This document shows positions 7,699 through 56,951 of a DNA stretch of 64,000 nucleotides, one piece after another. How positions within the stretch are numbered: position 1 is the first letter of the stretch; every line of letters begins with the position of its first letter. This DNA comes from a virus. The stretch covers positions 32,001 through 96,000 of IMG/VR virus record IMGVR_UViG_3300032287_003808. One strand, 5' to 3'. The position numbers and the translations under genes were made by a program. The notes beneath the pieces are model-generated. The model was not told the DNA's origin, searched no databases, and saw only the letters and a list, made by a program, of their open reading frames with translations.

Positions 7699-9054
7699 TT
7701 ACAATAAACTTTCTGCTACATAAATTGCTTGCGCACCTGACACTGTAATGCCGCGTGCGCTTAAAGCATCACCTACAAAATGTACATTTGGGTAATCAGT
7801 TAATGCTAGATTTTTATAATCTACTTTAACCTCAGGTGATAGATATTTTACTTCAGGAATATACATACCCCAATCATCTCCTAATGTTGGGAATACTTTT
7901 TTCATATCCATGATAAAATCCATAACATATTTGAAATAACCACCCATTGCAGGTTCTACAACATGAGTTAAAGTATCTAAACTAATTTGTTGTGTGCTTA
8001 CCCTATTACCTTCAGATGTAGTTGATGGTTGACGAGATGGGCTATAATATAATCCAGTTCTAATACCGTTAGGGGAATCTAAGTCTATTGGAAAAGGGGA
8101 TGAATATTGTATTTTAGAAACTACTTCACGTGACCAAGTAAATGGATCTTCAATACCATTGATTTCCATTAATATACCAAAGTTAGTCATATTATTTCTA
8201 TATGCTTCATCTTTTTTAGCGTGACCATTATATGAATGATCTCCATATGTTTCCTCTACAGCAACATAAGCAGCATTATTGTTTGTACAGAATGAACGTA
8301 ACGATACTCCTTCATCATCAAATTTTCTATATAACTTAAAGTCATATGAAATATCGATTAGTTTTTGAAAATGTTCTTGGGGTGCTTCAAATCGAACTCC
8401 AATTTGTACTGATTTGGGTTCATCCGGTAGTTCATATTCGTTTGCTAATTGTTGGGCAAAATCAATTCCTGATTTACCTACTGCAAATATGAGTTCATCA
8501 TATATAGTTCCTCCAGGTCCTAATTCAGGATAATTTAAGTTATTTATGGTTAAATGTTTTTTATCAAATTCAATGCTTGTTACTTTACATTCCCATAAAA
8601 ATTTAACGCCTTTTTCAACTAAATAATCGTACCAATTTTTAGCAATTTCAGATAAATAATCTGTTCCTACGTGCCATACAGGAAATAAACGTAAACCAAA
8701 ATATGGTTTAATAAAATCAGGTTCCTCAACAGGATTTGAACATTGTACTTCTTCAGGTTTAGGGTGGAAACGTTTAAAATTGGTAATTACTTGATCCATC
8801 AATTCCATTGCTTTTTCCTCACCACAATATTTAGATAATTGACCTCCAATTGCTGTATGGTATGTTAATTTACCATCAGACCAACCTCCAGCACCTAAAA
8901 ATCCTGTCATTACCTCTTCAGGTAAACGTTGGTATGGATCTTTACCCATATCAACTATTGTGATAAGTTCTCCAGGATAACCATTATCAACTAATTTTGT
9001 TGCAGCATTTACGCCTGCTACTCCAGCTCCTACTATTACTACTCGTTTATCCAT
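7699..9054 (-). CDS. FAD-dependent oxidoreductase (COG2509-like)
   Basis: VVIVGAGVAG Rossmann motif, GAGGWSDGKL, IGVRFE, RSFCTN, HFVGDA...RGI. Confidence 0.9.
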   Translation of the reverse strand: MDKRVVIVGAGVAGVNAATKLVDNGYPGELITIVDMGKDPYQRLPEEVMTGFLGAGGWSDGKLTYHTAIGGQLSKYCGEEKAMELMDQVITNFKRFHPKPEEVQCSNPVEEPDFIKPYFGLRLFPVWHVGTDYLSEIAKNWYDYLVEKGVKFLWECKVTSIEFDKKHLTINNLNYPELGPGGTIYDELIFAVGKSGIDFAQQLANEYELPDEPKSVQIGVRFEAPQEHFQKLIDISYDFKLYRKFDDEGVSLRSFCTNNNAAYVAVEETYGDHSYNGHAKKDEAYRNNMTNFGILMEINGIEDPFTWSREVVSKIQYSSPFPIDLDSPNGIRTGLYYSPSRQPSTTSEGNRVSTQQISLDTLTHVVEPAMGGYFKYVMDFIMDMKKVFPTLGDDWGMYIPEVKYLSPEVKVDYKNLALTDYPNVHFVGDALSARGITVSGAQAIYVAESLL

Positions 9055-11168: not shown

Positions 11169-11557
11169 TTTGTTTTACCCCATTTTTTACCTTTACCAGG
11201 TGTTTTACATTGAGCAGGTGTAGGACGACATGAAGGATATTTGGCTCGTTTTTCACCTTCTTTTCTACCACATGCTTTACATTTACCATCTCGGCAAGTA
11301 TTACAATCTACCCAACCACCTTCTTTTCCTGGTGTACCTTGGCGTTTAAACCATTTATAGAGTGATTCGTCTTCTTGGATTATTTCTTGGATTATTTCTT
11401 TTAATCCTTTCCATATATCACCTTGTCGGCATCTTTCTATATTGCCTGAGCGGTAAGCAGATGATTTTGGTATTTTACGTCTAGCAATACGTAAGCACCT
11501 ATCAGCTTTCTTTTTTTCTAAGAGAACTTCTTTAATTAAATCTCTTAACCTAGACAT
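11165..11557 (-). CDS. Basic Cys-rich phage protein
   Basis: LYKWFK...WVD...CGRKEGEKRAKYPSCRP, a common phage motif; N-terminal LRDLIKEVLLE. Confidence 0.65.
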   Translation of the reverse strand: MSRLRDLIKEVLLEKKKADRCLRIARRKIPKSSAYRSGNIERCRQGDIWKGLKEIIQEIIQEDESLYKWFKRQGTPGKEGGWVDCNTCRDGKCKACGRKEGEKRAKYPSCRPTPAQCKTPGKGKKWGKTK

Positions 11558-11910
11558 TTTAATTTATAAAGTGTTGATTGGGTTAATTCAATCACAGTAT
11601 CAATTTGATTTTGAATGTAAGAATCTGGGATATCTTGGCGTAATGTTTCTGTAATTTTATACAATGATTCAAAGTATGTTACTACTTGGTTTTTATCTGT
11701 GTAATTTATTAAAGGGAAACTAACGTATTCTTTGATAATTCCGTATTTACCTTGGTAAGATTCTACTAAACCATCTATTAAATCTACAATTCCATCATAA
11801 TAATCATTTAGTGCTTTATGTTCAGCAAATGATAAGGTTTGTAAATGAAACACATGAGCTTGTGTTCTTGAATGCATTAAATAAGATACTAATTTTGAGC
11901 AATTTTCCAT
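11545..11910 (-). CDS. Ferritin/Dps-like protein (DUF5856 type)
   Basis: HVFHLQT.SFAEHKALNDYYD...DGLVESYQGKYG...QNQID. Confidence 0.75.
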   Translation of the reverse strand: MENCSKLVSYLMHSRTQAHVFHLQTLSFAEHKALNDYYDGIVDLIDGLVESYQGKYGIIKEYVSFPLINYTDKNQVVTYFESLYKITETLRQDIPDSYIQNQIDTVIELTQSTLYKLKCLG

Positions 11911-31526: not shown

Positions 31527-33380
31527 TTATAAAGGTACTACTTTTCCTTTAATATCTAACTCAGGGTATCTAACTTCAAAAATACTAGGGTCTAAAGAAG
31601 GGTATACAACTTGATTTTGGGTAGCTGCTGTTATATCATAAGCATATTGAGAATATCCCATCATAGTTCCTACTTTATTAGAAATAGCAATATTTTTAAC
31701 AGTTTGAACTCCTTTTATTTTATCTAAAAGTATATATAAATCTCTTAAAAATATAGGTTGATTAATTTGCCATTTATCACGAGCAAAATAATTTTGGACT
31801 GAAGTGATGCATGCCAAGATAACTTCGTTGTTGTTATATTCAGGTAAAACTATGATTTCAAAATTTACTCCTATATTAATAATATAAGCGTCTTTAATCT
31901 CAATAGAATCTCCTATTACTCTATATTGGGAAAGGTAAGTGCGAAGATTATTCTTTAATGTATTAGAGGCATAATCAAATTGACCTAAATTATTAAATGC
32001 TAAACAATAAAGATTTAAAGTTTCAATAGTTGAAACTTGTTCATCTGTTAATTGAGGTTGTTGAATATATGCTTTAGATAATGAACCATATATAGAAGGC
32101 ATACTTAAAGCTCTAACTAAATAATCATATGATGTTACAGATCTTTGTTGAGATGCTATAAGTGCTAAAGTATTTTGTCTAATTTGTTCTAAAGTATCTC
32201 CTGCTGATCCTCCAGAAGCTGCTTCTGGGTTTGATAAAGCTAAAGAAGAATTAATGTAATTAGCCGTTGTTGGGTTTAATCCTATAACATTAAAAGTATA
32301 TGCCGTTGGATCTATCTTAGTTAAAGAATTTGAAGGTAAATTTGAAGCAACTCCACCCCCTGTTAAATATCTAATGATTAAAGTAGTATTAGAAGGCGCT
32401 ATACCATAAGTATTAGTATATAAGAAATTAGTAGGAGAGTAAGCCGCAGTTAATTTATCCTGATAGAAGGGTAATCCTAATCCTACATTGTTAGGGTTAG
32501 GTGTTATTTCTTCATCATTATCTTGGGTTGTTCCTGAACCGAATTGGATAACTAGAGTGTTACGAGATGTGAATCGGGTAGTGAATCTTCTTTGGATTTT
32601 TTCTAGACGAAGTAAATAAGGTACTTGATTATTACTTACTGAGTTATTAGGGTCATTAATGTTAGTGTTAATAACAGGTTTATAAATCATTTCTTGTCCT
32701 AAATGATCTACTTCATACCATACATTTCCATCTGAATCTGTTATGTCAAGGATCCCTATTAAGTTAGGTTTATTAATCTCAATAGTTGAAAATTCTACAG
32801 GTTCATTAAAGGTTTGTGTAGTTGTATTTATTGTAGCGGATATAGCATTTCTTTGTTTTTTTAAAAGAAAGTATTGAGGGATAGTCCCTGCTATTTGATA
32901 TACAGAAATTTCTGTAGGGTCTTGAGAACTAGATATTGAGAAATCAATTTTATCTTGAGTTAAAAAAGATGTTCCATTTTGAGAACTAACTGTTGAATTT
33001 TCTCTTACAGTTAAGGCATAATCATAATCAGGTACATATTCACTACCAGAAAGCTTAGAAGGTAATTGTTGGTAAAAATTTAAAGTAACTTGAGCAACAC
33101 CCGTAGCTTTTGGTTTATATCCAAACATATAAGCCAACTCAAAGATGTTATTGGTTTGACGAGCATATTGAATAAAATTTTCTTGAAATTGATTATCAAG
33201 ATAAAAACTTAGAACATCACCAACATAAGCTGCTTGCTCCATAAATAACATCCCTGGGGATGCTGGGGAGAAGTCATTGTAAGTATTAGGGAAATAAGTC
33301 TTAGTATATTCAATTAATCGTTGTCTGAAATCATTGAAATCACGATTAATGTATTTGATGTCTCTGTTTACAGTCGCCAT
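31527..33380 (-). CDS. Baseplate wedge protein (gp6/baseplate J-like)
   Basis: RDFNDFRQRL...YNDFSPASPG...AYVGDVLSFYLD; IQFGSG; YLTGGG; ASGGS.GDT..QIR; QRSVT..DY. Confidence 0.9.
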   Translation of the reverse strand: MATVNRDIKYINRDFNDFRQRLIEYTKTYFPNTYNDFSPASPGMLFMEQAAYVGDVLSFYLDNQFQENFIQYARQTNNIFELAYMFGYKPKATGVAQVTLNFYQQLPSKLSGSEYVPDYDYALTVRENSTVSSQNGTSFLTQDKIDFSISSSQDPTEISVYQIAGTIPQYFLLKKQRNAISATINTTTQTFNEPVEFSTIEINKPNLIGILDITDSDGNVWYEVDHLGQEMIYKPVINTNINDPNNSVSNNQVPYLLRLEKIQRRFTTRFTSRNTLVIQFGSGTTQDNDEEITPNPNNVGLGLPFYQDKLTAAYSPTNFLYTNTYGIAPSNTTLIIRYLTGGGVASNLPSNSLTKIDPTAYTFNVIGLNPTTANYINSSLALSNPEAASGGSAGDTLEQIRQNTLALIASQQRSVTSYDYLVRALSMPSIYGSLSKAYIQQPQLTDEQVSTIETLNLYCLAFNNLGQFDYASNTLKNNLRTYLSQYRVIGDSIEIKDAYIINIGVNFEIIVLPEYNNNEVILACITSVQNYFARDKWQINQPIFLRDLYILLDKIKGVQTVKNIAISNKVGTMMGYSQYAYDITAATQNQVVYPSLDPSIFEVRYPELDIKGKVVPL

Positions 33381-39878: not shown

Positions 39879-40011
39879 TATATTAAAATTAGTTTAAAGA
39901 ACTTAATCTATATCTTATTTACTTGATTTCGCCATAAAATAGCCTATAACCCTAATCTAAATCCTAATATCCGTATATACGACCTAGTATGTGTAGGTTT
40001 GTTGATAAATA

Positions 40012-40497
40012 TTATAAGTACCTTTGTCCCAACAATGTAATGGCTGTTTTGGCTTCCTCCACGGATATTTGAAAAAACTCTCTATCGTTATTTATCCTAT
40101 AACCTTTTAAATACCTATGAAGCTCAATTTCTAAAGCGTGTGCATTAAAGCATCTAAACGCATATACAACACTAAACTCCAAAGGCACGCCAGTTGATCG
40201 AGAAATTTGTTTAGCACGTTTATCCGGCGTCTTATCAGTAAATCCTATTTTAACCAAATTAGGCATAGTCTTATTTGTCAAAATGTAGATCCATGAGTCA
40301 CCTTCACCTTCCCTATTTTGATACAGATCTTTTTTTCTAGCTGTATAATAAGTTACGTTATCCCATTCTGGGTCTTCTTCATTTGGTGTTAGGGTAAAGA
40401 ATGCTGGTTCTGATCCTGTGAAGTCTTCTGATACTGGGATATAATTGTGTGCTTCGGATTCACTAATACGTTTCATACTAGTTTGGGTATTTTTCAT
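40012..40497 (-). CDS. GIY-YIG / T5orf172-domain protein
   Basis: WIYILTN..MPNLVKIGFT...RAKQISRSTGVP...E..LH...REFF. Confidence 0.9.
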   Translation of the reverse strand: MKNTQTSMKRISESEAHNYIPVSEDFTGSEPAFFTLTPNEEDPEWDNVTYYTARKKDLYQNREGEGDSWIYILTNKTMPNLVKIGFTDKTPDKRAKQISRSTGVPLEFSVVYAFRCFNAHALEIELHRYLKGYRINNDREFFQISVEEAKTAITLLGQRYL

Positions 40498-40750
40498 AAT
40501 ACTCCTCTTCCGTCATATAAATTGCTTCGTTAACTCGTTTTGTAAGTTCCTTAATGCTACGTTTTCTAGCGTTGACAAAAGTTAGAAACAAACTAGCTGA
40601 AATTATTAAGAACGAAATAATGTCCATGTCTACAATTTCTATTACGGCTAGTATTGATTCTACTACACCTGTAAACATTAATGTGATGATTACGAAATCA
40701 ATTACTCGGATTTCTTTTTCTAGTTGCTGTGCTTTTTCCTTGTTACTCAT
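40478..40750 (-). CDS. Two-TM membrane protein
   Basis: Two hydrophobic segments; GGTCATG leader. Confidence 0.7.
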   Translation of the reverse strand: MSNKEKAQQLEKEIRVIDFVIITLMFTGVVESILAVIEIVDMDIISFLIISASLFLTFVNARKRSIKELTKRVNEAIYMTEEEYYEKYPN

Positions 40751-40799
40751 GACCTTTATTTTTTAATTATTAATTTCTTTGAATATATGAAACTAATTT

Positions 40800-41088
40800 A
40801 GTATATACAAATATACTTGGTCAAAAGGTGAAATTTTTTTAAAGATCTCTTTTTGTGGGTTTTTGGGTTTTATCCATTTTTGCAATTTTGGAATCATGGG
40901 GTATATTCTTTGGGTGGTATATAATTATATATTTATCGATGGGTAAAAGTTGTTTTCGCTCTATAAATCCATCACATTCCTTCCCGTATACCCATACCCC
41001 GTACATTGACCGTAACGCGTACGGGGGATATACATACCTAGTACGTACCATATATGTACCATATACCGTATGCGGTGAGACTACGGAA
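40800..41088. other. Non-coding structured boundary region
   Basis: Local G/C skew flip near 40960; inverted repeat CCCCGTAC/GTACGGGG (40997-41026); short (G)TACCATAT repeats. Confidence 0.45.
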
Positions 41089-41108
41089 GTGGGTCCTTGC
41101 GGACCCAC
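41089..41108 (-). terminator. GNRA-capped hairpin ending the small-gene array
   Basis: GTGGGTCC-GCAA-GGACCCAC; U-tract weak. Confidence 0.6.
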
Positions 41109-41127
41109 CTTTATTAGAAGCGCTAAA

Positions 41128-41352
41128 CTACCATCTCGTCACTTGGTCATCATTGTTTTTGGTTGTCATGTATTCCGCATACGGGTCTTCACAGTTCTCA
41201 ATCGCTCTAACTATGTCACTTTTCAAATACGCAGCGTCCATCACGCTTAACTTACTTGTGTCGTAACCCATCGCCTTCAAGAAATCCATTACTGCGATGA
41301 ACTGATCCATTACGTTCACATCTACACCATCAAGTTTTTTCAAATTTTTCAT
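41128..41352 (-). CDS. Small hypothetical protein
   Basis: Own promoter and GGTTATG leader. Confidence 0.8.
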   Translation of the reverse strand: MKNLKKLDGVDVNVMDQFIAVMDFLKAMGYDTSKLSVMDAAYLKSDIVRAIENCEDPYAEYMTTKNNDDQVTRW

Positions 41353-41394
41353 AACCGCTATTTTTAATTATACTTTAATATACGTAATTCAATT

Positions 41395-41607
41395 TCAGAG
41401 TCTGTATCCCAACATATAATTGCCAATGTAACTATCTAAACTTGTTCCGCGGCAAATGTCATACCCTGTTTCCGCCTTGTCGTTATCACGTTTCGCATAC
41501 TCTTCTAACGCGGTGTACACTTCAGGTATCAATATTTTCTTCCACCCTGACAACTGTTCTGCTTGGATTCTCATTCCGTCCACTACTGTAAAAACTTTTC
41601 TTTCCAT
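41395..41607 (-). CDS. Small hypothetical protein
   Basis: Own promoter and leader. Confidence 0.8.
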   Translation of the reverse strand: MERKVFTVVDGMRIQAEQLSGWKKILIPEVYTALEEYAKRDNDKAETGYDICRGTSLDSYIGNYMLGYRL

Positions 41608-41647
41608 AACCGTTTCTTTAAATATACTTTAATATACGTAACTGTCT

Positions 41648-41782
41648 TTAGTCATTAGTGTCCTTAGCTAACTCTTCAAACTGTAATATCAACAACGGAA
41701 CCAATCCGATTAAACCCCAATCGTTCCCGAACGCCAATAATATCGTTCCAAATACTCCTACTGTAATACCAAATGTTCTCAT
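41648..41782 (-). CDS. Small membrane protein (44 aa)
   Basis: Not in track: MRTFGITVGVFGTILLAFGNDWGLIGLVPLLILQFEELAKDTND; leader identical over 23 nt to that of 41395..41607. Confidence 0.7.
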   Translation of the reverse strand: MRTFGITVGVFGTILLAFGNDWGLIGLVPLLILQFEELAKDTND

Positions 41783-41829
41783 AACCGTTTCTTTAAATAT
41801 ACTGAAATATACGTAATGTCATTTGCGAC

Positions 41830-42144
41830 TTATACTCCCGTCTTTGCTCTCAATATGTCATCTAACATGTCGATTAGGTCTCCTAGGTAGCCATTACGAG
41901 CTAAGTCATCTAAATCGTATGTCTGGTCTTCATAATACCCACCACAACAATCACATCCGAAATCAATATACTCACCTAACACTACTGTTCCGTTTTCGAA
42001 ATCGAAACCTCGCAACTCCAATTTACCCACTTTGTCAAGTCGATCACACCATAACTCCATTTCGAAATCGATGTCTTTAATTTTTCCGAATTGTGTAAAC
42101 GTGTTACACGCGTCCATAAACTCTCTTGCTGTCATAACCTTCAA
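41830..42144 (-). CDS. Acidic Cys-containing hypothetical protein
   Basis: GCDCCGG; ATG at 42135 has the GGTTATG leader and is the likelier start. Confidence 0.75.
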   Translation of the reverse strand: MKVMTAREFMDACNTFTQFGKIKDIDFEMELWCDRLDKVGKLELRGFDFENGTVVLGEYIDFGCDCCGGYYEDQTYDLDDLARNGYLGDLIDMLDDILRAKTGV

Positions 42145-42218
42145 TTTAGAATATACAATAAAGCAAATTTAACACCTACTACTCCCACTGCCAATAATAA
42201 ACATACTAAAACTTCCAT
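42141..42218 (-). CDS. 25-aa hydrophobic peptide
   Basis: Not in track: MEVLVCLLLAVGVVGVKFALLYILN; own promoter and leader. Confidence 0.55.
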   Translation of the reverse strand: MEVLVCLLLAVGVVGVKFALLYILN

Positions 42219-42268
42219 AACCGTTATTTTTAATTATACTTTAATATACGTAACAATGTTTGGTGTTA

Positions 42269-42427
42269 TTACTCCTTTATAACGTGTTTAATATACTCTC
42301 CCTCATCGAACCAATAAAACGCTAGTCGTCCGTCTTCAAGTCGTAACGTTATCACCGCTTGGTCTAAATTGCCATCCATACTCAAAATGTCGGCTCCGTG
42401 TTTCTGTAAAAATGTTTGCGTTCTCAT
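42269..42427 (-). CDS. Small hypothetical protein (52 aa)
   Basis: Not in track: MRTQTFLQKHGADILSMDGNLDQAVITLRLEDGRLAFYWFDEGEYIKHVIKE. Confidence 0.6.
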   Translation of the reverse strand: MRTQTFLQKHGADILSMDGNLDQAVITLRLEDGRLAFYWFDEGEYIKHVIKE

Positions 42428-42437
42428 GTACCCCGAA

Positions 42438-42455
42438 AGCCCGATTACTCGGGCT
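42438..42455 (-). terminator. GNRA-capped hairpin
   Basis: AGCCCGA-GTAA-TCGGGCT; weak U-tract. Confidence 0.55.
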
Positions 42456-42482
42456 CACAAGGTGTATATTTAAGATAACCGG

Positions 42483-42905
42483 TTATGAAGCGGTGTCGTT
42501 AATTACTACTTTTGGTCTTCCAAGTGGCATCACACCACCATTAGCGGCTTTCTTGGCTTCCATTTCCGCCAATCGTTTCTGGCGCGCACTTTCCCCATTC
42601 ACCGGGCGACCTTTTTTCAACTCACCATTTGCTCGTTTCGTCTCTAACTCCACTAACCGCATTTGGCGGGCACTGTCTGCCTTAATTGGTCGACCCTTTT
42701 TCAACTCACCATTCGCTCGTTTCTCAGCCAACTCGGCAATTCGTATTTGGCGGGCACTATCTGCCTTAACTGGTCGGCCTCGTTTCCCTGTTGTCTCTGG
42801 CTTGGCCATGTTTGCCAACATCTCTTCCAATACTACGCTCTTCATTGTATGAGCTCCTTTAATTCCTGCTGCAATCGCTGTTGCTACTAATTCATTTCTT
42901 TTCAT
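42483..42905 (-). CDS. AT-hook (GRP) repeat DNA-binding protein with Rho_N/HeH-like N-terminus
   Basis: Four GRP motifs in 28-aa repeats; ELVATAIAAGIKGAHTMKSVVL. Confidence 0.7.
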   Translation of the reverse strand: MKRNELVATAIAAGIKGAHTMKSVVLEEMLANMAKPETTGKRGRPVKADSARQIRIAELAEKRANGELKKGRPIKADSARQMRLVELETKRANGELKKGRPVNGESARQKRLAEMEAKKAANGGVMPLGRPKVVINDTAS

Positions 42906-42955
42906 AACTGTTATTTTTAATTATACTTTAATATACGTAACTGATTTAACTTAAC

Positions 42956-43096
42956 TTACTCCCCACTTAAACTGATGTAATTAAATTGGTTGTAATCCAT
43001 CTCACCAATAATCATAGATGCTACTACCGTTACTAATCCTACTACCGCAATGGTTCCCATTGCTCCTAATACTAATGTTTCAATCCAATTTTTCAT
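42956..43096 (-). CDS. Small membrane protein (46 aa)
   Basis: Not in track: MKNWIETLVLGAMGTIAVVGLVTVVASMIIGEMDYNQFNYISLSGE; own promoter. Confidence 0.65.
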   Translation of the reverse strand: MKNWIETLVLGAMGTIAVVGLVTVVASMIIGEMDYNQFNYISLSGE

Positions 43097-43137
43097 AACC
43101 TTTTTTTATTTAATATACGTAACCAATCTAACTAAAC

Positions 43138-43206
43138 TTACTCCTCATTATATTCAGAGTACCATTCAATCTTTTCCCAGCTAATTAGTCCATCAAAATT
43201 CTCCAT
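43138..43206 (-). CDS. 22-aa acidic peptide
   Basis: Not in track: MENFDGLISWEKIEWYSEYNEE; own promoter and GGTTATG leader. Confidence 0.55.
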   Translation of the reverse strand: MENFDGLISWEKIEWYSEYNEE

Positions 43207-43256
43207 AACCTTTATCTTAAAATATAATTAAATATAAGTAATTTACTTTAATTCAT

Positions 43257-43448
43257 TTACTCCTTACTTAACCATTTTAACCCATTAACATCTTTAACTT
43301 CAATAATCTCATACTCATTTTTATCCCTATCACACAATTCTTCAAACTCAATCTCACCCACCTCATAACCTAAACTCTCAATCAATTCTTCCTTACTATT
43401 ACTAATAAAACTAAAATTTAAACAATAATCAATCACTAAATACTTCAT
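43257..43448 (-). CDS. Acidic small protein encoded with no cytosine on the coding strand
   Basis: No G on + strand 43239-43479; protein lacks A, P, T, H, Q; own promoter and leader. Confidence 0.8.
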   Translation of the reverse strand: MKYLVIDYCLNFSFISNSKEELIESLGYEVGEIEFEELCDRDKNEYEIIEVKDVNGLKWLSKE

Positions 43449-43513
43449 AACTTTATCTTTTTAATTTATATAAATATAAGTAACAAAAATGGGGGCTCTT
43501 ACACCCCCACTAA

Positions 43514-43735
43514 TTAAATATAATCATATTCATCATTCCAATTACACTCAATAAATCCTATCTCACTCAAATCATCTATATAATTATAACAAAAATCTAA
43601 ATAATCTTTATAAATTATATCCTCACCCACCTTAAACTCATTTAAAAAGTTATTTAACATCTCATCATCCTCATAAGATTCAATCACTTCTTTAACATAG
43701 TCATAATCTCTAGTCTTAAATTTAATTTTTCCCAT
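43514..43735 (-). CDS. Highly acidic/aromatic small protein (DNA-mimic candidate)
   Basis: D/E/Y-rich; only 4 C on the coding strand. Confidence 0.75.
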   Translation of the reverse strand: MGKIKFKTRDYDYVKEVIESYEDDEMLNNFLNEFKVGEDIIYKDYLDFCYNYIDDLSEIGFIECNWNDEYDYI

Positions 43736-43794
43736 AATCTTTATTTTTTAATTTATATAAATATAAGTAATAAAATTAAATAATTATGTTCCTG

Positions 43795-43983
43795 TTAATT
43801 AAATGTTACCATCCTGTGAGCTAATAAAGCCAACTCCGTGTCATTAAAGGGCTCTTCTCCCTCGTTAATATATTTTCTCAATTGGTAGGCCACTATGGCC
43901 TTTATATCCTGGCCTGATATCTCCCCTTCATTAGCCCTCTTCATGGCCAGTTTGAACCTGTTTATTACTTTAATCTCATTCAT
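43795..43983 (-). CDS. Small hypothetical protein
   Basis: Own promoter and leader. Confidence 0.75.
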   Translation of the reverse strand: MNEIKVINRFKLAMKRANEGEISGQDIKAIVAYQLRKYINEGEEPFNDTELALLAHRMVTFN

Positions 43984-44029
43984 AACCTTTATCTTTTTAA
44001 TTTATCTTAATATACGTAATTTGTTGGGG

Positions 44030-44260
44030 CTATTTTATTCCTAGCCCCTCATATTTCAATAAACTATTTGCAATATACCTATGTACGGCATTTATATTTT
44101 TGAATTGGGACACATTATCAACAATTATTTTCTTGTCTGTGTCCTTAATATTTTTAGTTTCAATAAAACTTAGAATTACTCCTTTTGCCTCATTCAAATC
44201 TCTAATCTGGAATACTTGTGGTGCCACCTCTTCCAATACGCTTTTAATTTTGATCTTCAT
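44030..44260 (-). CDS. Small hypothetical protein
   Basis: Own promoter and leader. Confidence 0.8.
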   Translation of the reverse strand: MKIKIKSVLEEVAPQVFQIRDLNEAKGVILSFIETKNIKDTDKKIIVDNVSQFKNINAVHRYIANSLLKYEGLGIK

Positions 44261-44319
44261 AACTTTATCTTTTTAATTTATTTAAATATATGTAACTAAA
44301 TTAGGGGGTCTTATTCCCC

Positions 44320-44580
44320 CTAAATCCAATCCATACTATATCCCATTTCAACTAACTTATCCATAATATACTCTGGTAATTCAAATACACCATCATAATC
44401 TCTTAGGTAAGTTGTGTCTCCTTCCTTATCAAACCATAGGCCTCCTTCGGCATAAACCCTTTCACCCCCTGTTTCAACATCATACAATTCAAACCAACCG
44501 TAGCCTTCATTCTTGATTCCTACTGTCACTTCTAATTCTGTTCCTCGTGGTGATACCACCTTAAATGTTTCTTCTTTCAT
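44320..44580 (-). CDS. Acidic hypothetical protein
   Basis: YAEGGLWF...LRDYDGVFELP; own promoter. Confidence 0.8.
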   Translation of the reverse strand: MKEETFKVVSPRGTELEVTVGIKNEGYGWFELYDVETGGERVYAEGGLWFDKEGDTTYLRDYDGVFELPEYIMDKLVEMGYSMDWI

Positions 44581-44629
44581 AACCTTTTTTTCTTTTAATA
44601 TACGTAACTATTTCTAATGATTTTACTCC

Positions 44630-44776
44630 CTAAAAATCACTTTTCATTAGTTCCTCTATCTTTTCTTTTAATTCTCCTAGTAATTCAGATGTTAGCTTTT
44701 CCTCATCAGCTAGTCCATTGTTCATTACATTAACTAATTCCTGTAGTACTAGTTGCTTTTCTTCCTTTAAACTCAT
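44630..44776 (-). CDS. Small helical protein (48 aa)
   Basis: Not in track: MSLKEEKQLVLQELVNVMNNGLADEEKLTSELLGELKEKIEELMKSDF. Confidence 0.6.
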   Translation of the reverse strand: MSLKEEKQLVLQELVNVMNNGLADEEKLTSELLGELKEKIEELMKSDF

Positions 44777-44840
44777 ATCTCTTTTTTTCTTAAATATATG
44801 TAATTAAAATAGGGGCTTTTACACCCCTATTATTTTATTT

Positions 44841-45161
44841 TTATTCTTCACTTTTAATCATTTTTGGTCTCCCTAACTTAAAAGTTCCATTTAATTTTCT
44901 TTCTTCTATTTCCTTCAACCTCATCTGTCTTTTACTCTCTCCATTAACAGGTCTTCCTTTCTTTAACTCCCCATTACTTCTCTTCTCTTCTAATTCTTTT
45001 AGCCTTACCTGTCTAACACTATCTTCTTTAATGGGTCTTCCTTTTTTAATCTCCCCATTCTTTCTTCTTTCTTCTAATTCCTTTAGTCTTAATTGTCTTA
45101 CACTTTCAGGATTAACTGGGCGTCCCAATTGTTTTACTTCAATAATCTCTACTTTTTTCAT
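44841..45161 (-). CDS. AT-hook (GRP) repeat protein, paralog of 42483..42905
   Basis: Four GRP motifs in the same 28-aa repeat; no alanine. Confidence 0.75.
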   Translation of the reverse strand: MKKVEIIEVKQLGRPVNPESVRQLRLKELEERRKNGEIKKGRPIKEDSVRQVRLKELEEKRSNGELKKGRPVNGESKRQMRLKEIEERKLNGTFKLGRPKMIKSEE

Positions 45162-45207
45162 AACACTTATCTTTTTAATTTACTTAAATATACGTAACAA
45201 ATTTAAC

Positions 45208-45402
45208 TTAAAACATTCCCCCGTCAATAATAAATACTTTAGTCTTTTTATTATCATCTTCACTCAGGTATACTTTTTCAGTTCCTATGTACTCAACATC
45301 ATTATAGTAAATATAATTTGTTGGGTCGGTTCCTTGAACAATCACTTCTAGATCTTTGTCCTTAACCTTTTCTAATTTTTTAATTAACTCCTTTACTGTC
45401 AT
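45208..45402 (-). CDS. Small hypothetical protein
   Basis: MTVKELIKKLE N-terminus; own promoter; no Ala. Confidence 0.8.
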   Translation of the reverse strand: MTVKELIKKLEKVKDKDLEVIVQGTDPTNYIYYNDVEYIGTEKVYLSEDDNKKTKVFIIDGGMF

Positions 45403-45455
45403 AACCTTTTATATTTTTAATTATGTTGAAATATACGTAACAATTTCTAATAATT

Positions 45456-45767
45456 TTATTCCTCACTATCTATCATTTCTTTTAATTCTAGGAAAAAATC
45501 ATAGGCATCTGTTTTTCCTCCTATATGGAACTCATCCAATTCATTCATGGTGTATTCCTCATCATAAGTCTTCCAATCATAAACTGTAAATATCTCTCCA
45601 TTATACTCTACAATCCATTCCTTCTGAACCTTATCATCTCCTGATGCTTCTGGGTGTGTTGGTTCCCCTAGTACCCTAACTAGGTCCTGGTAGGTACAGT
45701 TAATGTATCCTTTAAATCCAGACCCTGATGTCTTCCCTTTTAATTCATTTTCTTTTAATACTTTCAT
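45456..45767 (-). CDS. Hypothetical protein
   Basis: LGEP...DDKVQKEW...FTVYDWK...FHIGG common phage pattern. Confidence 0.8.
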   Translation of the reverse strand: MKVLKENELKGKTSGSGFKGYINCTYQDLVRVLGEPTHPEASGDDKVQKEWIVEYNGEIFTVYDWKTYDEEYTMNELDEFHIGGKTDAYDFFLELKEMIDSEE

Positions 45768-45798
45768 AACCTTTTTTCTTTTAATATACGTAACTCTT

Positions 45799-45951
45799 TT
45801 AATCTAAGCTTATCCCCTTATGTTTATCTTTACGGGTGTATTTCTTTTTTGATTCCATCGCCCTCGCAACAAATCTTCCATCAAAGTACCCCTGTTGTTT
45901 CTGTGATTCCCTTGTGGCTCCTATGTTCATTTTAATTGTCTCCTTTTTCAT
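45799..45951 (-). CDS. Basic 50-aa protein with ArfA-like motif
   Basis: Not in track: ...GYFDGRFVARAMESKKKYTRKDKHKGISLD; own promoter. Confidence 0.55.
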   Translation of the reverse strand: MKKETIKMNIGATRESQKQQGYFDGRFVARAMESKKKYTRKDKHKGISLD

Positions 45952-46008
45952 TTCTTTTATTTTTAATAAATATACGAAACAATTTTAATAATTTTTAGTC
46001 CCTTTTAA

Positions 46009-46315
46009 TCATTCTCCCCCCTGTTCCCCCGTGGGGGTGTGGGGGTTGTATATACTTTCGTTCTCTACCCAAAGGGTCGTGTTCGCACCATGTAAGGGTC
46101 CGATACGACATTCCTCTATTCCACACTTATCATCTCCTGTTTTCCACCTACTCACAATCACTTCTAATCTCATTACCCCCTTATATTCCTGTTTGTCACC
46201 CATTGGTAAATATCCTTAATAAATTAAACGCGTATAAAACACTCAAATAACACTTATGATACATTTTATATTTTAATGGTGTTCTCATTTATATCACATT
46301 TATTTCATTTCTTAT
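46009..46315. other. Promoter-less structured region with C/G tracts
   Basis: CCCCCCTGTTCCCCCGTGGGGGTGTGGGGG and imperfect GTCGTGT/ATACGAC inverted repeat. Confidence 0.4.
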
Positions 46316-46498
46316 TTAATTATCTCCAAGGTATGTTTCATAAATTTCTAGTAATTCCTCTCCATCTACAATAAACGGATCTGTTTCCTCAAGAAATCCA
46401 AACTTACCATTGTCGGTCACTTCAAATTTATCCACTTCAAGTTGGAGAATATCAAATCCATTCTCAACTAATTCCTTAAATGCTGTTTTTACTTCCAT
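46316..46498 (-). CDS. Acidic small protein
   Basis: Own promoter and leader. Confidence 0.8.
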   Translation of the reverse strand: MEVKTAFKELVENGFDILQLEVDKFEVTDNGKFGFLEETDPFIVDGEELLEIYETYLGDN

Positions 46499-46629
46499 AA
46501 CTTTTTATTTTAATATACGTAAGTGATTTTTATTATTTTACTCCTCTATAATCTCATTCCACCCAATAACCTCTAATCACTAACATAACAATCAATACAC
46601 TAATGAATACTCCTATAAACAATTCCATA

Positions 46630-46785
46630 TCAAAACACTATAAAATCCTCTAAATACTCACCTGTTCCTTTTCCGTTCTTAGTTATTTCATAACTCGGAT
46701 CCATTCCACTATACATTACACGATCAATTAACTCTTGTAATGAATTAAATTCTTCCTTAAAGTAACTACAATCTAAACTATACAT
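46630..46785 (-). CDS. Small hypothetical protein (51 aa)
   Basis: Not in track: MYSLDCSYFKEEFNSLQELIDRVMYSGMDPSYEITKNGKGTGEYLEDFIVF; own promoter. Confidence 0.65.
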   Translation of the reverse strand: MYSLDCSYFKEEFNSLQELIDRVMYSGMDPSYEITKNGKGTGEYLEDFIVF

Positions 46786-46829
46786 AACTTTCTTATTTTT
46801 TATTTATACTGAAATATACGTTCTCTCTT

Positions 46830-47030
46830 TTATATCTCTTCTTCCTTTATGGTTTGTCTTGTAAATTCTATTGTTACAGAACTCTCATAAATCGTTTCTG
46901 TAGTTGTCTCACATGAATCTGCTTCCCGGTTCATGATCATTTCCATTGCTGTTTCTTCATCCTTAGCAATTATTTCATAAGTGTAAGTGACCATAGCAGG
47001 TACTTGTTCCTCAATTATATATCTTTTCAT
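46830..47030 (-). CDS. Acidic small protein
   Basis: ORF, array context. Confidence 0.75.
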   Translation of the reverse strand: MKRYIIEEQVPAMVTYTYEIIAKDEETAMEMIMNREADSCETTTETIYESSVTIEFTRQTIKEEEI

Positions 47031-47042
47031 AATTTCTTTCTT

Positions 47043-47210
47043 TTAATCCTCAATTTTCACTCCTAATAGTTGACACATATGTTCTAAATCAATTTGGATG
47101 TCTCCTTTATTCCGTAACACTACTTTTAATGAATTAACCATTTGTACTACATTAGGATGATTTGAAGCCATTTCTGCTTTCTTAATGAACTTACTTAATT
47201 TTATTTTCAT
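47043..47210 (-). CDS. Small hypothetical protein (55 aa)
   Basis: Not in track: MKIKLSKFIKKAEMASNHP...; own promoter and leader. Confidence 0.6.
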   Translation of the reverse strand: MKIKLSKFIKKAEMASNHPNVVQMVNSLKVVLRNKGDIQIDLEHMCQLLGVKIED

Positions 47211-56357: not shown

Positions 56358-56951
56358 TTAAATAAAATCTTCCTCTACTAATTTATCTTTAAGAAGATCT
56401 CTTAATTTAGCTTTTGCTTTGAATAGATTTGATTTAGAAGTCCCTTCATTTATACCTAATATTTCAGCTACTTCTTTATGTGGGTGTTCTTCTAACACAT
56501 ATAATTTAAAAACTTTCCTATATGAATCAGGTAGTTTCTCTATTGTTAATAGTATTGTATCTAAAAAATCCTCACTATACTTTTTTTCCTCAGATTTAAG
56601 ATGAGTAGTATTAACATCAACAGTATTGTTTTTGAATTTATCTTTTCTTATTTCATCAATAGCTGTATTAATTACAATTCTACGCATCCACCCCTCTATT
56701 GAGTTGTTATATGAGTATTGAGATATTCTGTTAAATATTTTAATAAAACTGAGTTGTACTATGTCTTGTGCTTGGTGTTCGTTTTGAGTGTATTTAAGGC
56801 TCACATGCAACATTTTACTGTAGAACATATTGAACAGTGTTGTTTGACTCGCTTGTTTGTTTTGAACGCATCCATCAATGATATGTTTAAGATTATTTTC
56901 CATCAATATACTCATCTGTAAGGCATACATTACATTTTTGCTTTGGGGCAA
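56358..56951 (-). CDS. ECF-type RNA polymerase sigma factor (likely start 56903)
   Basis: AQDIVQLSFIKIF; GWMRRIVINTAID; LPDSYRKVF...HKEVAEILGINEGTSKSNLFKAK. Confidence 0.92.
   Translation of the reverse strand: MPQSKNVMYALQMSILMENNLKHIIDGCVQNKQASQTTLFNMFYSKMLHVSLKYTQNEHQAQDIVQLSFIKIFNRISQYSYNNSIEGWMRRIVINTAIDEIRKDKFKNNTVDVNTTHLKSEEKKYSEDFLDTILLTIEKLPDSYRKVFKLYVLEEHPHKEVAEILGINEGTSKSNLFKAKAKLRDLLKDKLVEEDFI

Follow-up and report, generated by a model that had tools for sequence, protein, structure and literature searches.

Viral avoidance of short motifs or dinucleotides is well known, CpG or UpA being depleted in animal viruses, and mRNAs devoid of ACA escape MazF. The G-less cassette is an artificial tool for in vitro transcription, and prokaryotic viperins make ddhCTP, a chain-terminating analogue of cytidine triphosphate (CTP). 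Concerning gene organization, the hyperplastic regions of T4-type phages carry promoter-early stem-loop (PeSL) cassettes, according to the abstract of PMC2839356. The present work deals with two paralogous genes, A and B, within a stretch of 64,000 nucleotides (nt) of viral DNA (hereafter the window; positions 32,001 to 96,000 of the IMG/VR record IMGVR_UViG_3300032287_003808), and with a block of small genes poor in sense-strand cytosine (C). We show that a strand-specific and cassette-confined exclusion of C overrides codon and amino-acid choice and is kept under purifying selection on the proteins. As for ACA-less mRNAs or CpG and UpA depletion, the pattern resembles a strand-specific depletion at the transcript level that goes beyond the need of the protein; unlike in motif-avoiding transcripts, what is missing here is an entire base, across stretches of hundreds of nucleotides, and five amino acids are lost with it. 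By analogy with the G-less cassette and with ddhCTP, a template that never calls for one nucleotide could be transcribed without it and would be immune to its analogue; viperins are cited here as an analogy only. A full-text literature search returned no report of cytosine-free phage genes, and none of coding sequence that dispenses with a whole base for as much as about 1 kb and gives up five amino acids.

The window belongs to a linear viral metagenome record of 131,434 bp (estimated 82% complete, 31.7% GC), the minus strand of which carries almost all genes. The sequencing runs matching this DNA are labelled as freshwater or lake metagenomes, none of them being listed as an RNA run, and the sole hint of a host comes from one protein of the structural region, which distantly matches Flavobacterium phages (30% of the query aligned at 29% identity). 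The two genes and their internal repeats are as follows:

42483..42905, minus strand: gene A, 140 amino acids (21 Ala), net basic, with an N-terminal helix-loop-helix followed by GRP-plus-helix repeats (4 GRP)
44841..45161, minus strand: gene B, 106 amino acids (0 Ala), without the N-terminal domain, with 4 GRP motifs in the same repeats
42607..42776, minus strand: tandem repeat of 84 nt (28 codons) in A (Tandem Repeats Finder, 2.0 copies, 83% match)
44897..45104, minus strand: tandem repeat of 84 nt in B (Tandem Repeats Finder, 2.5 copies, 78% match)

Judging from their alignment, A and B are diverged paralogues (60 identities over 92 positions by BLASTP, i.e., 65%, E = 1e-40). This result, together with the 84-nt tandem unit found in both genes, recovers the shared repeat of 28 amino acids reported in the initial annotation, and the counts of Ala, GC, C, CG and GC dinucleotides and AG given there were recomputed and found exact, which confirms the observation as a whole. 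In a six-frame search of the whole record, the GRP....S.RQ unit occurred six times, always inside A or B, and no third gene carrying it was found. Both proteins are strongly basic (31 K+R versus 16 D+E in A, 32 versus 19 in B), and both are under purifying selection, with a ratio of nonsynonymous to synonymous divergence (dN/dS) of 0.09 for A and 0.13–0.19 for B. Their composition differs markedly: A has 47.8% GC (49.5–51.5% in 200-nt windows across 42500–42799), 23 CG and 31 GC dinucleotides and 74 C, versus 32.4% GC, 1 CG, 2 GC and 20 C on the coding strand of B. The codon-aware alignment of the two genes spans 90 codons, of which 60 encode the same residue and only 23 are the same codon, for a nucleotide identity of 61.5%; 10 of the synonymous differences oppose an Arg codon CGN in A to AGR in B, and at 12 positions where A has Ala, B has K (4), E (3), V (2), P (1), S (1) or L (1).

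Expected C counts were derived from the amino acids of the gene itself and the codon usage of the genome, with 20,000 simulations for B. While a mean of 33.1 C is expected in B, none of the simulations reaches the 20 observed (minimum 22), and 15 of these 20 are obligatory, i.e., unavoidable in Pro, Gln or Thr codons. The C shortage of B is far beyond chance and beyond its amino-acid make-up, and the absence of Ala (GCN codons) is part of the same avoidance. Indeed, Ala, Thr and His, as well as the C-containing codons of Ser, Arg and Leu, are expelled because the sense strand is kept nearly C-free: Arg is written AGR in 13 of 14 cases and Ser AGT in all five, while A uses CGN for 12 of its 14 Arg and holds slightly more C than expected (74 vs 64). 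B also shows that the Pro of GRP and the Gln of RQ are irreplaceable, as they retain nearly the sole C left. The codon-aware comparison with homologs proposed in the initial annotation showed that this state is conserved. In two related contigs, the B orthologues (91% and 87% identity) keep 0–1 Ala; the orthologues of loci L001 and L008 (such labels denote related viral contigs with family members) each hold 15 C, 14 of them obligatory in L001 and all 15 in L008, and low C is kept across a synonymous divergence (dS) of about 0.5 with a dN/dS of 0.13–0.19.

The contrast between A and B is a regional trait of neighbouring cassettes and not of the gene pair. The two genes use different alphabets because B sits inside a C-depleted block and A at its downstream edge, where C is normal. 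Hence the avoidance, which had been presented as specific to the genes, is a property of the whole cassette block, of which the main features are listed below (fC, sense-strand C fraction):

42956..47210, minus strand: sense-strand C-depleted block of 16 genes, small early-type cassettes, median fC 0.094 versus 0.137 for the genome
43194..43793, minus strand: most C-poor 600 nt of the record, fC 0.022
43257..43448, minus strand: C-free gene of 63 amino acids, 0 C in 192 nt (12 expected), no A, P, T, H or Q
43514..43735, minus strand: C-poor gene of 73 amino acids, 4 C in 222 nt (13.6 expected)
43488..43511, minus strand: terminator-like hairpin between the two C-poor genes, holding 5 of the few sense-strand C of the block

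Across the whole block, the GC skew of the plus strand lies between -0.41 and -0.62, and A, P, T, H and Q together account for 13% of residues versus 19% genome-wide; this wider block is C-poor mostly through its amino acids. The longest sense C-free runs of the record (241 and 153 nt) both lie here, when shuffled genomes give a mean of 68 nt and a maximum of 106 nt. The 19 sense-strand C found in 43097–43794 are placed as follows: five in the hairpin arm, four in promoter-like motifs (one each), four in an open reading frame (ORF) of 22 amino acids, four in the first part of 43514..43735 and two in intergenic DNA just after a stop codon.

The same trait was found, often in a stronger form, in related phages. 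All 60 loci confirmed by the family profile scan are viral contigs, and their longest sense C-free runs reach 977 nt in L016, 903 in L065, 702 and 568 in L023, 576 in L030 and 559 in L008, while G-free runs, taken as control, are of about 100 nt or less with one exception (183 nt). Among 1705 distinct sense-strand ORFs of at least 45 amino acids (from the related loci and the record), 10 have no C and 31 have at most two, versus none with at most two G; A, P, T, H and Q are all missing from the 899 residues of the ten C-free proteins. For the 18 ORFs with at most one C, the nearest upstream C (known for 17) is never less than 24 nt from the ATG, and the first C after the stop codon falls within 29 nt in 11 of the 18, mostly in hairpin stems. 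These positions indicate that the exclusion spans the leader and the coding sequence and spares the promoter-like motif and the terminator.

The link with the paralogue pair was examined over 54 distinct loci, an Ala-poor copy being defined by at most five Ala. A 600-nt window with fC of at most 0.03 was found in 13 of 19 loci with an Ala-poor copy versus 1 of 35 without (Fisher test, 3e-7, a value that overstates independence, the loci being related phages). An Ala-poor copy is paired with an Ala-rich one in 9 of 13 two-copy loci (the window, L001, L009, L016, L023, L029, L030, L036 and L062); the unpaired ones are L008 (1 and 2 Ala), L059 (22 and 22), L060 (11 and 16) and L063 (6 and 11). 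In all nine poor-plus-rich pairs, the Ala-poor copy is upstream and the Ala-rich copy downstream, at the block edge, and in eight of them fC between the copies is 0.027–0.071 versus 0.13–0.17 after the Ala-rich copy. A C-free block of early-type genes with one paralogue inside and one at the edge is conserved in a group of lake phages. Two side observations concern individual loci. Proteins of 137–138 amino acids with a common N-terminal sequence are encoded at L023:1190-1603, L030:7380-7796 and L051:3574-3987 with 0, 0 and 1 C, respectively, and have no Ala, Pro, Thr, His or Gln. In L008 (26.6% GC), both copies (7857-8189 and 11472-11879), including a form with the N-terminal domain, are Ala-poor, with C-free runs of 559 and 302 nt in the DNA between them.

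The pairing bears on the proposal of the initial annotation that the copies avoid different sets of restriction or RNase motifs, so that one survives in each type of host. The two maintained encodings on which it relied are real (the 9 of 13 loci above, purifying selection on both genes, and nucleotide-level avoidance in B), and a sense strand devoid of C cannot, owing to base pairing, carry any palindromic site containing a G:C pair. The motif sets themselves did not hold. What B avoids is a single base and not motifs, as do unrelated neighbouring genes, and no avoidance could be demonstrated in A: it has more C than expected, and the run lacking AG on the plus strand at 42545..42725 (0 AG in 181 nt, i.e., free of CT on the sense strand), although present as described, is a chance feature, since 376 of 2000 synonymous-codon shuffles of A (19%) give a run at least as long and the closest orthologue (L001) does not preserve it, having a run of 64 nt. 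Moreover, protecting a few hundred bases would be of no help against DNA restriction to a genome of 131 kb or more, and we consider this explanation very improbable.

Alternatively, the proteins themselves may be specialised, with Ala-rich versus Lys/Glu-rich helices serving different partners or binding strengths and the nucleotide differences being a mere consequence. Such a view agrees with the correlations over 66 family genes, in which the Ala fraction is followed closely by gene GC (r = 0.88) and only weakly by GC at third codon positions (GC3; r = 0.28), with the additional N-terminal domain of A, and with the normal C content of the Ala-free copies in L053, L058 and upstream in L062. 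It does not account for the avoidance of C by B and its orthologues at synonymous sites (none of 20,000 simulations, and the Ser and Arg codons given above), nor for the co-occurrence of Ala-poor copies with C-free neighbours, nor for L008, in which the copy bearing the N-terminal domain is Ala-poor too, with 2 Ala, and adjacent to C-free DNA. Protein specialisation as the primary cause is consequently rather improbable.

The main rival is strand-specific deamination without selection: the non-template strand of the very heavily transcribed first genes would lose its C to U/T by deamination, whether spontaneous or catalysed by a single-strand cytosine deaminase of the host, and the resulting lack of C would have no adaptive value. 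The effect is indeed strand-specific, and AT skew is near zero at 43300–43700, over the two most C-poor genes, while the sense strand is A-rich elsewhere, so that A is about equal to T where C replaced by T would predict it. In addition, C>T and T>C are the commonest differences in the metagenome contigs aligned to the region, and the proteins are small and accessory and may tolerate many replacements. However, C is kept where function needs it (Pro and Gln of the repeats, hairpin stems), and the boundaries are sharp at cassette edges, beside cassettes with similar promoter-like motifs and normal C. The state is also stable across the synonymous divergence and purifying selection reported above for B, the proteins sharing a common N-terminal sequence remain C-free in three loci, and a raised third-position G is not produced by C-to-T change. 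Altogether, we regard a purely mutational origin as unlikely, though it has more in its favour than the other alternatives. Two further ideas were dropped: codon avoidance directed against tRNA-targeting defences, as a third-position C-to-T change uses the same transfer RNAs (tRNAs), and an assembly or sequencing artefact, as the trait is present in many independent contigs, respects gene boundaries and leaves the frames open.

The reading that we prefer, and hold to be probably correct, is that A and B are paralogues whose alphabets are set by their position, and that the C purge is selected at the level of the transcript or the template. Selection would remove C from the transcript or G from the template strand, over a stretch that begins about 24 nt ahead of the ATG and ends at the stop codon, each C being a liability for the first genes expressed. 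In the version that we favour, RNA would have to be made or to survive when CTP is scarce, when chain-terminating analogues take its place, or when cleavage depends on C. The phage would need the GRP-repeat protein both under such a 'no-C' regime and afterwards, hence a low-C copy and an ordinary copy. Candidate causes include transcription under CTP scarcity or with chain-terminating CTP analogues, nucleases that need C, a modified G in the incoming template, and avoidance of C-rich, G-poor Rho loading sites; the last would fit the raised G, but hardly demands zero C. No TGT/DpdA, QueC or dCMP deaminase was found in the 82%-complete record, and a thymidylate synthase homologue, considered as a possible base-modification enzyme, scores as an ordinary ThyA.

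Several points weigh against this selective reading, besides the relatedness of the loci mentioned with the Fisher test. Six of the 19 loci with an Ala-poor copy have no C-poor block in their available sequence, the poor-plus-rich pair of L062 lacks a C-poor interval, and the copies at L053:3974-4321, L058:5977-6324 and L062:2239-2505 have 0–1 Ala with an ordinary fC of 0.13–0.14; an Ala-free state can exist without C avoidance, as a relic or as a protein-level effect. In the window, the purge is milder than in the relatives, and the immediate neighbours of B have an observed-to-expected C ratio of about 1 at synonymous sites, being C-poor through their amino acids only. The region also shows a two- to three-fold rise in third-position G, which a simple 'avoid C' model does not predict. 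A single old duplication is not proven either: the tree of 67 family proteins groups the Ala-poor copies with 4 state changes, but 10 are needed after masking Ala-rich columns, so that most of the signal is lost. Finally, we infer the transcription starts, their timing and the label 'early', and the binding of nucleic acid by A and B is a predicted role.

A more tentative extension, possible but in our view doubtful, is that one group of lake phages maintains some of its first-expressed genes as three-letter (A, G, U) messages, with a 15-letter amino-acid alphabet, that could be transcribed and remain intact when cytidine is unavailable or turned against the phage, the GRP-repeat protein being needed at that time. 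If so, the triggers could be host CTP depletion, viperin-type CTP-derived terminators, or a cytidine-directed nuclease or deaminase, and the stripped copy would show, as a by-product, which residues cannot be dispensed with (the Pro of GRP, the Gln of RQ). The pattern implies a strong factor acting at single cytosines of one strand, or at template guanines, early in infection, which could be an unrecognised host defence or a take-over mechanism of the phage. The paralogue pair would also offer a natural experiment on how far a functional protein can be recoded and on which repeat residues cannot go, and the C-free proteins could serve as natural reduced-alphabet proteins, folded or functional.

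The GC content of A has an additional local cause. From amino acids alone, a GC of 39.5% is predicted for A, versus 48.1% observed, and GC3 is 0.407 versus 0.178 expected, the excess being mainly G (third-position G, G3, of 0.286; third-position C, C3, of 0.121). The five genes downstream are likewise rich (GC3 0.40–0.51, with about 0.18–0.23 expected), and together they form the following feature:

41128..42905, minus strand: six-gene G3/C3-rich sub-block with A first, median G3 0.277, C3 0.170, GC3 0.40–0.51

The codon usage of this sub-block is the local cause of the GC of A beyond its Ala content, whereas the Ala-rich state is the family norm, since the median member has 9% Ala; 59 of the 66 family genes are richer in GC than their surroundings. 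The sub-block raised the question of a recent import of A and its neighbours from a higher-GC phage or host, which the initial annotation had set as a counter-test of its own proposal, along with a non-conserved Ala-free state; neither outcome was observed. Its GC3 values would agree with such an import, as would the homologues of A's neighbours that are GC-poor in other contigs (the gene 42269..42427 has a GC of 0.40 here versus 0.26–0.31 in L001–L003) and the third-position changes polarised with L002 (12 AT-to-GC versus 4 GC-to-AT on the window lineage). However, all 66 family genes lie in loci of 25.5–34.9% GC and not in higher-GC genomes, no relative was found in a scan of one genome per species over 185,579 prokaryote species, and synteny is conserved between A and its orthologues of L001, L002 and L005. 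In addition, the third-position excess is mostly G and not C and extends into the C-poor block, as a regional codon habit would do. We therefore give hardly any credence to a recent import.

It should be noted as a separate observation that third-position G is raised over the whole of 41128–47210 (median 0.20–0.28, two to five times the 0.05–0.14 of the rest of the genome), independently of the C loss. Along this gradient, the C-poor block has a median G3 of 0.20, the value fades further upstream, and the structural genes have 0.05–0.08. Inside the C-poor block, 46009-46203 is a compositional outlier, with an ORF of 64 amino acids, 47.7% GC and a G-run/C-run hairpin at 46026-46045.

The organization of the region into small cassettes is supported by recurrent putative signals, of which those next to A and B are the following:

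42927..42940, minus strand: promoter-like motif TTACGTATATTAAA upstream of A, one of 43 window matches versus 3.2 expected
45184..45197, minus strand: promoter-like motif upstream of B, with one mismatch
44808..44831, strand not assigned: palindromic G/C-stem hairpin, terminator-like, just downstream of B, the next promoter-like motif being at 44790-44803

The general form TT[A/T]CGTATATTAAA, allowing up to 2 mismatches, accounts for these 43 matches; between 41374 and 61801 every match lies on the minus strand, typically about 25–35 nt ahead of an ATG. The word 'promoter' is putative, as it derives from the position and recurrence of the motif. A sigma-70 promoter scan gave 27 consensus matches versus 27.3 in shuffles, i.e., no enrichment, while terminator-like hairpins (G/C stem plus T run) number 6 versus 2.2 expected and close several cassettes. 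A phage-encoded sigma-factor homologue is present at 56358-56930 (Sigma70_r2, E = 3e-12), which fits the possibility that later genes are read by the host core polymerase with a phage sigma factor. Variants of the motif were observed: the C-free cassettes of L023:1100-2760 carry TTTTGTATATT, without C, and a neighbouring C-containing cassette carries TTTCGTATATT; within 42900-43800 of the window, the C-poor cassettes have TTACTTATATTTA in place of TTACGTATATTAAA. From these few sequences, the promoter variant may go with the C-free state.

As in the PeSL cassettes of PMC2839356, at least as its abstract presents them, the region consists of many small ORFs annotated without function, each with a repeated promoter-like motif and a stem-loop. 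In one contig of a lake metagenome (run X5), position 43228 is joined to 43471 through 13 shared letters, so that the C-free gene cassette is exactly absent (242 bases skipped). This single contig suggests that cassettes are gained and lost by recombination between promoter repeats, and such a one-cassette gap is what the cassette shuffling of PeSL regions would produce. Unlike in PeSL cassettes, the motif here is not sigma-70-like, and the abstract of PMC2839356 makes no mention of base exclusion.

With regard to the proteins, A has 663 relatives of 77–245 amino acids (E of at most 1e-3) with hypothetical or incidental names, and B has 422 cluster representatives at 50% identity, for which the look-up returned 'hypothetical protein' only. 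By sequence similarity, A and B are members of a large phage family without a name, whose small basic proteins are made of 28-residue (K/R)GRP-plus-helix repeats. Searches of Pfam, PHROGs and NCBIfam with A and B gave nothing significant and no family model. In the family alignment (42 members), the G-R-P, S and R-Q columns show no or almost no variation in each 28-residue unit, which consists of an extended (K/R)GRP segment and one helix beginning at the conserved Ser-x-Arg-Gln. The AlphaFold model of A, with this alignment as input, predicts helices at 3-12, 23-33, 51-64, 79-93 and 107-121, the last three being separate, of 14–15 residues each, and joined by extended GRP linkers; its confidence is locally good without a compact fold (predicted local distance difference test, pLDDT, 81.5; predicted template modelling score, pTM, 0.29). 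At the N-terminus (residues 1–30, pLDDT 88–89), two short helices and an extended linker take a HeH/SAP/Rho_N-like shape. The Rho_N model is touched by 1 of 42 family members (E = 0.06), A itself having no Pfam match, and in the ESM Atlas search, where every score was below 0.8, one cluster with 27% Rho_N members scored 0.77 and is a lead only; likewise, the HeH/Rho_N reading of the N-terminus is a lead from predicted shape alone. Foldseek of the A model against the Protein Data Bank (PDB) returned nothing at E of at most 0.001, and the best match of a PDB sequence search, a ribosomal protein at E = 0.083, was judged not credible. The proteins most likely bind nucleic acid through their GRP segments and basic helices, as predicted 'beads on a string'.

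The initial annotation had called A and B AT-hook repeat paralogs, of which the paralogy stands (65% identity) and the AT-hook assignment lacks support. An AT-hook is defined by an Arg ahead of the core (RGRP) and by basic residues on both sides. The core Gly-Arg-Pro is present four times in A and four times in B; however, as far as sequence criteria go, membership of the AT-hook family is not supported, because the Pfam AT_hook model (PF02178) gives no match to A or B at E of at most 1, RGRP occurs in one of four units in A and none of four in B, and the residues after GRP are non-basic (V or I, then N, K or D). A likeness remains with AT-hook proteins of the HMGA type (PF02178, SMART AT_hook) and with the prokaryotic AT-hook of Lsr2/H-NS-like silencers, as A and B share repeated GRP cores preceded by K or R and are small, very basic and without a compact fold. 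By analogy, insertion of the extended segment in the groove of AT-rich nucleic acid would be a plausible mode of binding. Unlike in HMGA, each GRP of A and B is tied to a Ser-x-Arg-Gln helix with a fixed period of 28 residues.

The surroundings gave little further annotation. A megablast of 40000–46000 and a tblastn of A and B against 50,697 phage records gave no match, for which low-complexity filtering, or the absence of near-identical records from the set searched, is a possible cause, and tRNA and Rfam scans of the region gave no match. Two tRNA genes of the record, Met-CAT and Leu-TAA, lie outside the window on the minus strand (record positions 98108-98182 and 98833-98917), and the window itself has none. 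The stretch 40839-41266 is GC-rich, 200-nt windows reaching 46.5%; ORFs of the two strands overlap there, a strong hairpin lies at 41089-41108, and neither a tRNA nor an Rfam family was matched. Three metagenome runs have 112 different letters in place of 41127-41253. Among 20 neighbouring small proteins searched against Pfam, the only match is that of 40012..40497, just downstream of the early cassettes, which encodes a protein of 161 amino acids with a T5orf172/MUG113 domain (E = 3e-19) and is 95–99% identical in related contigs.

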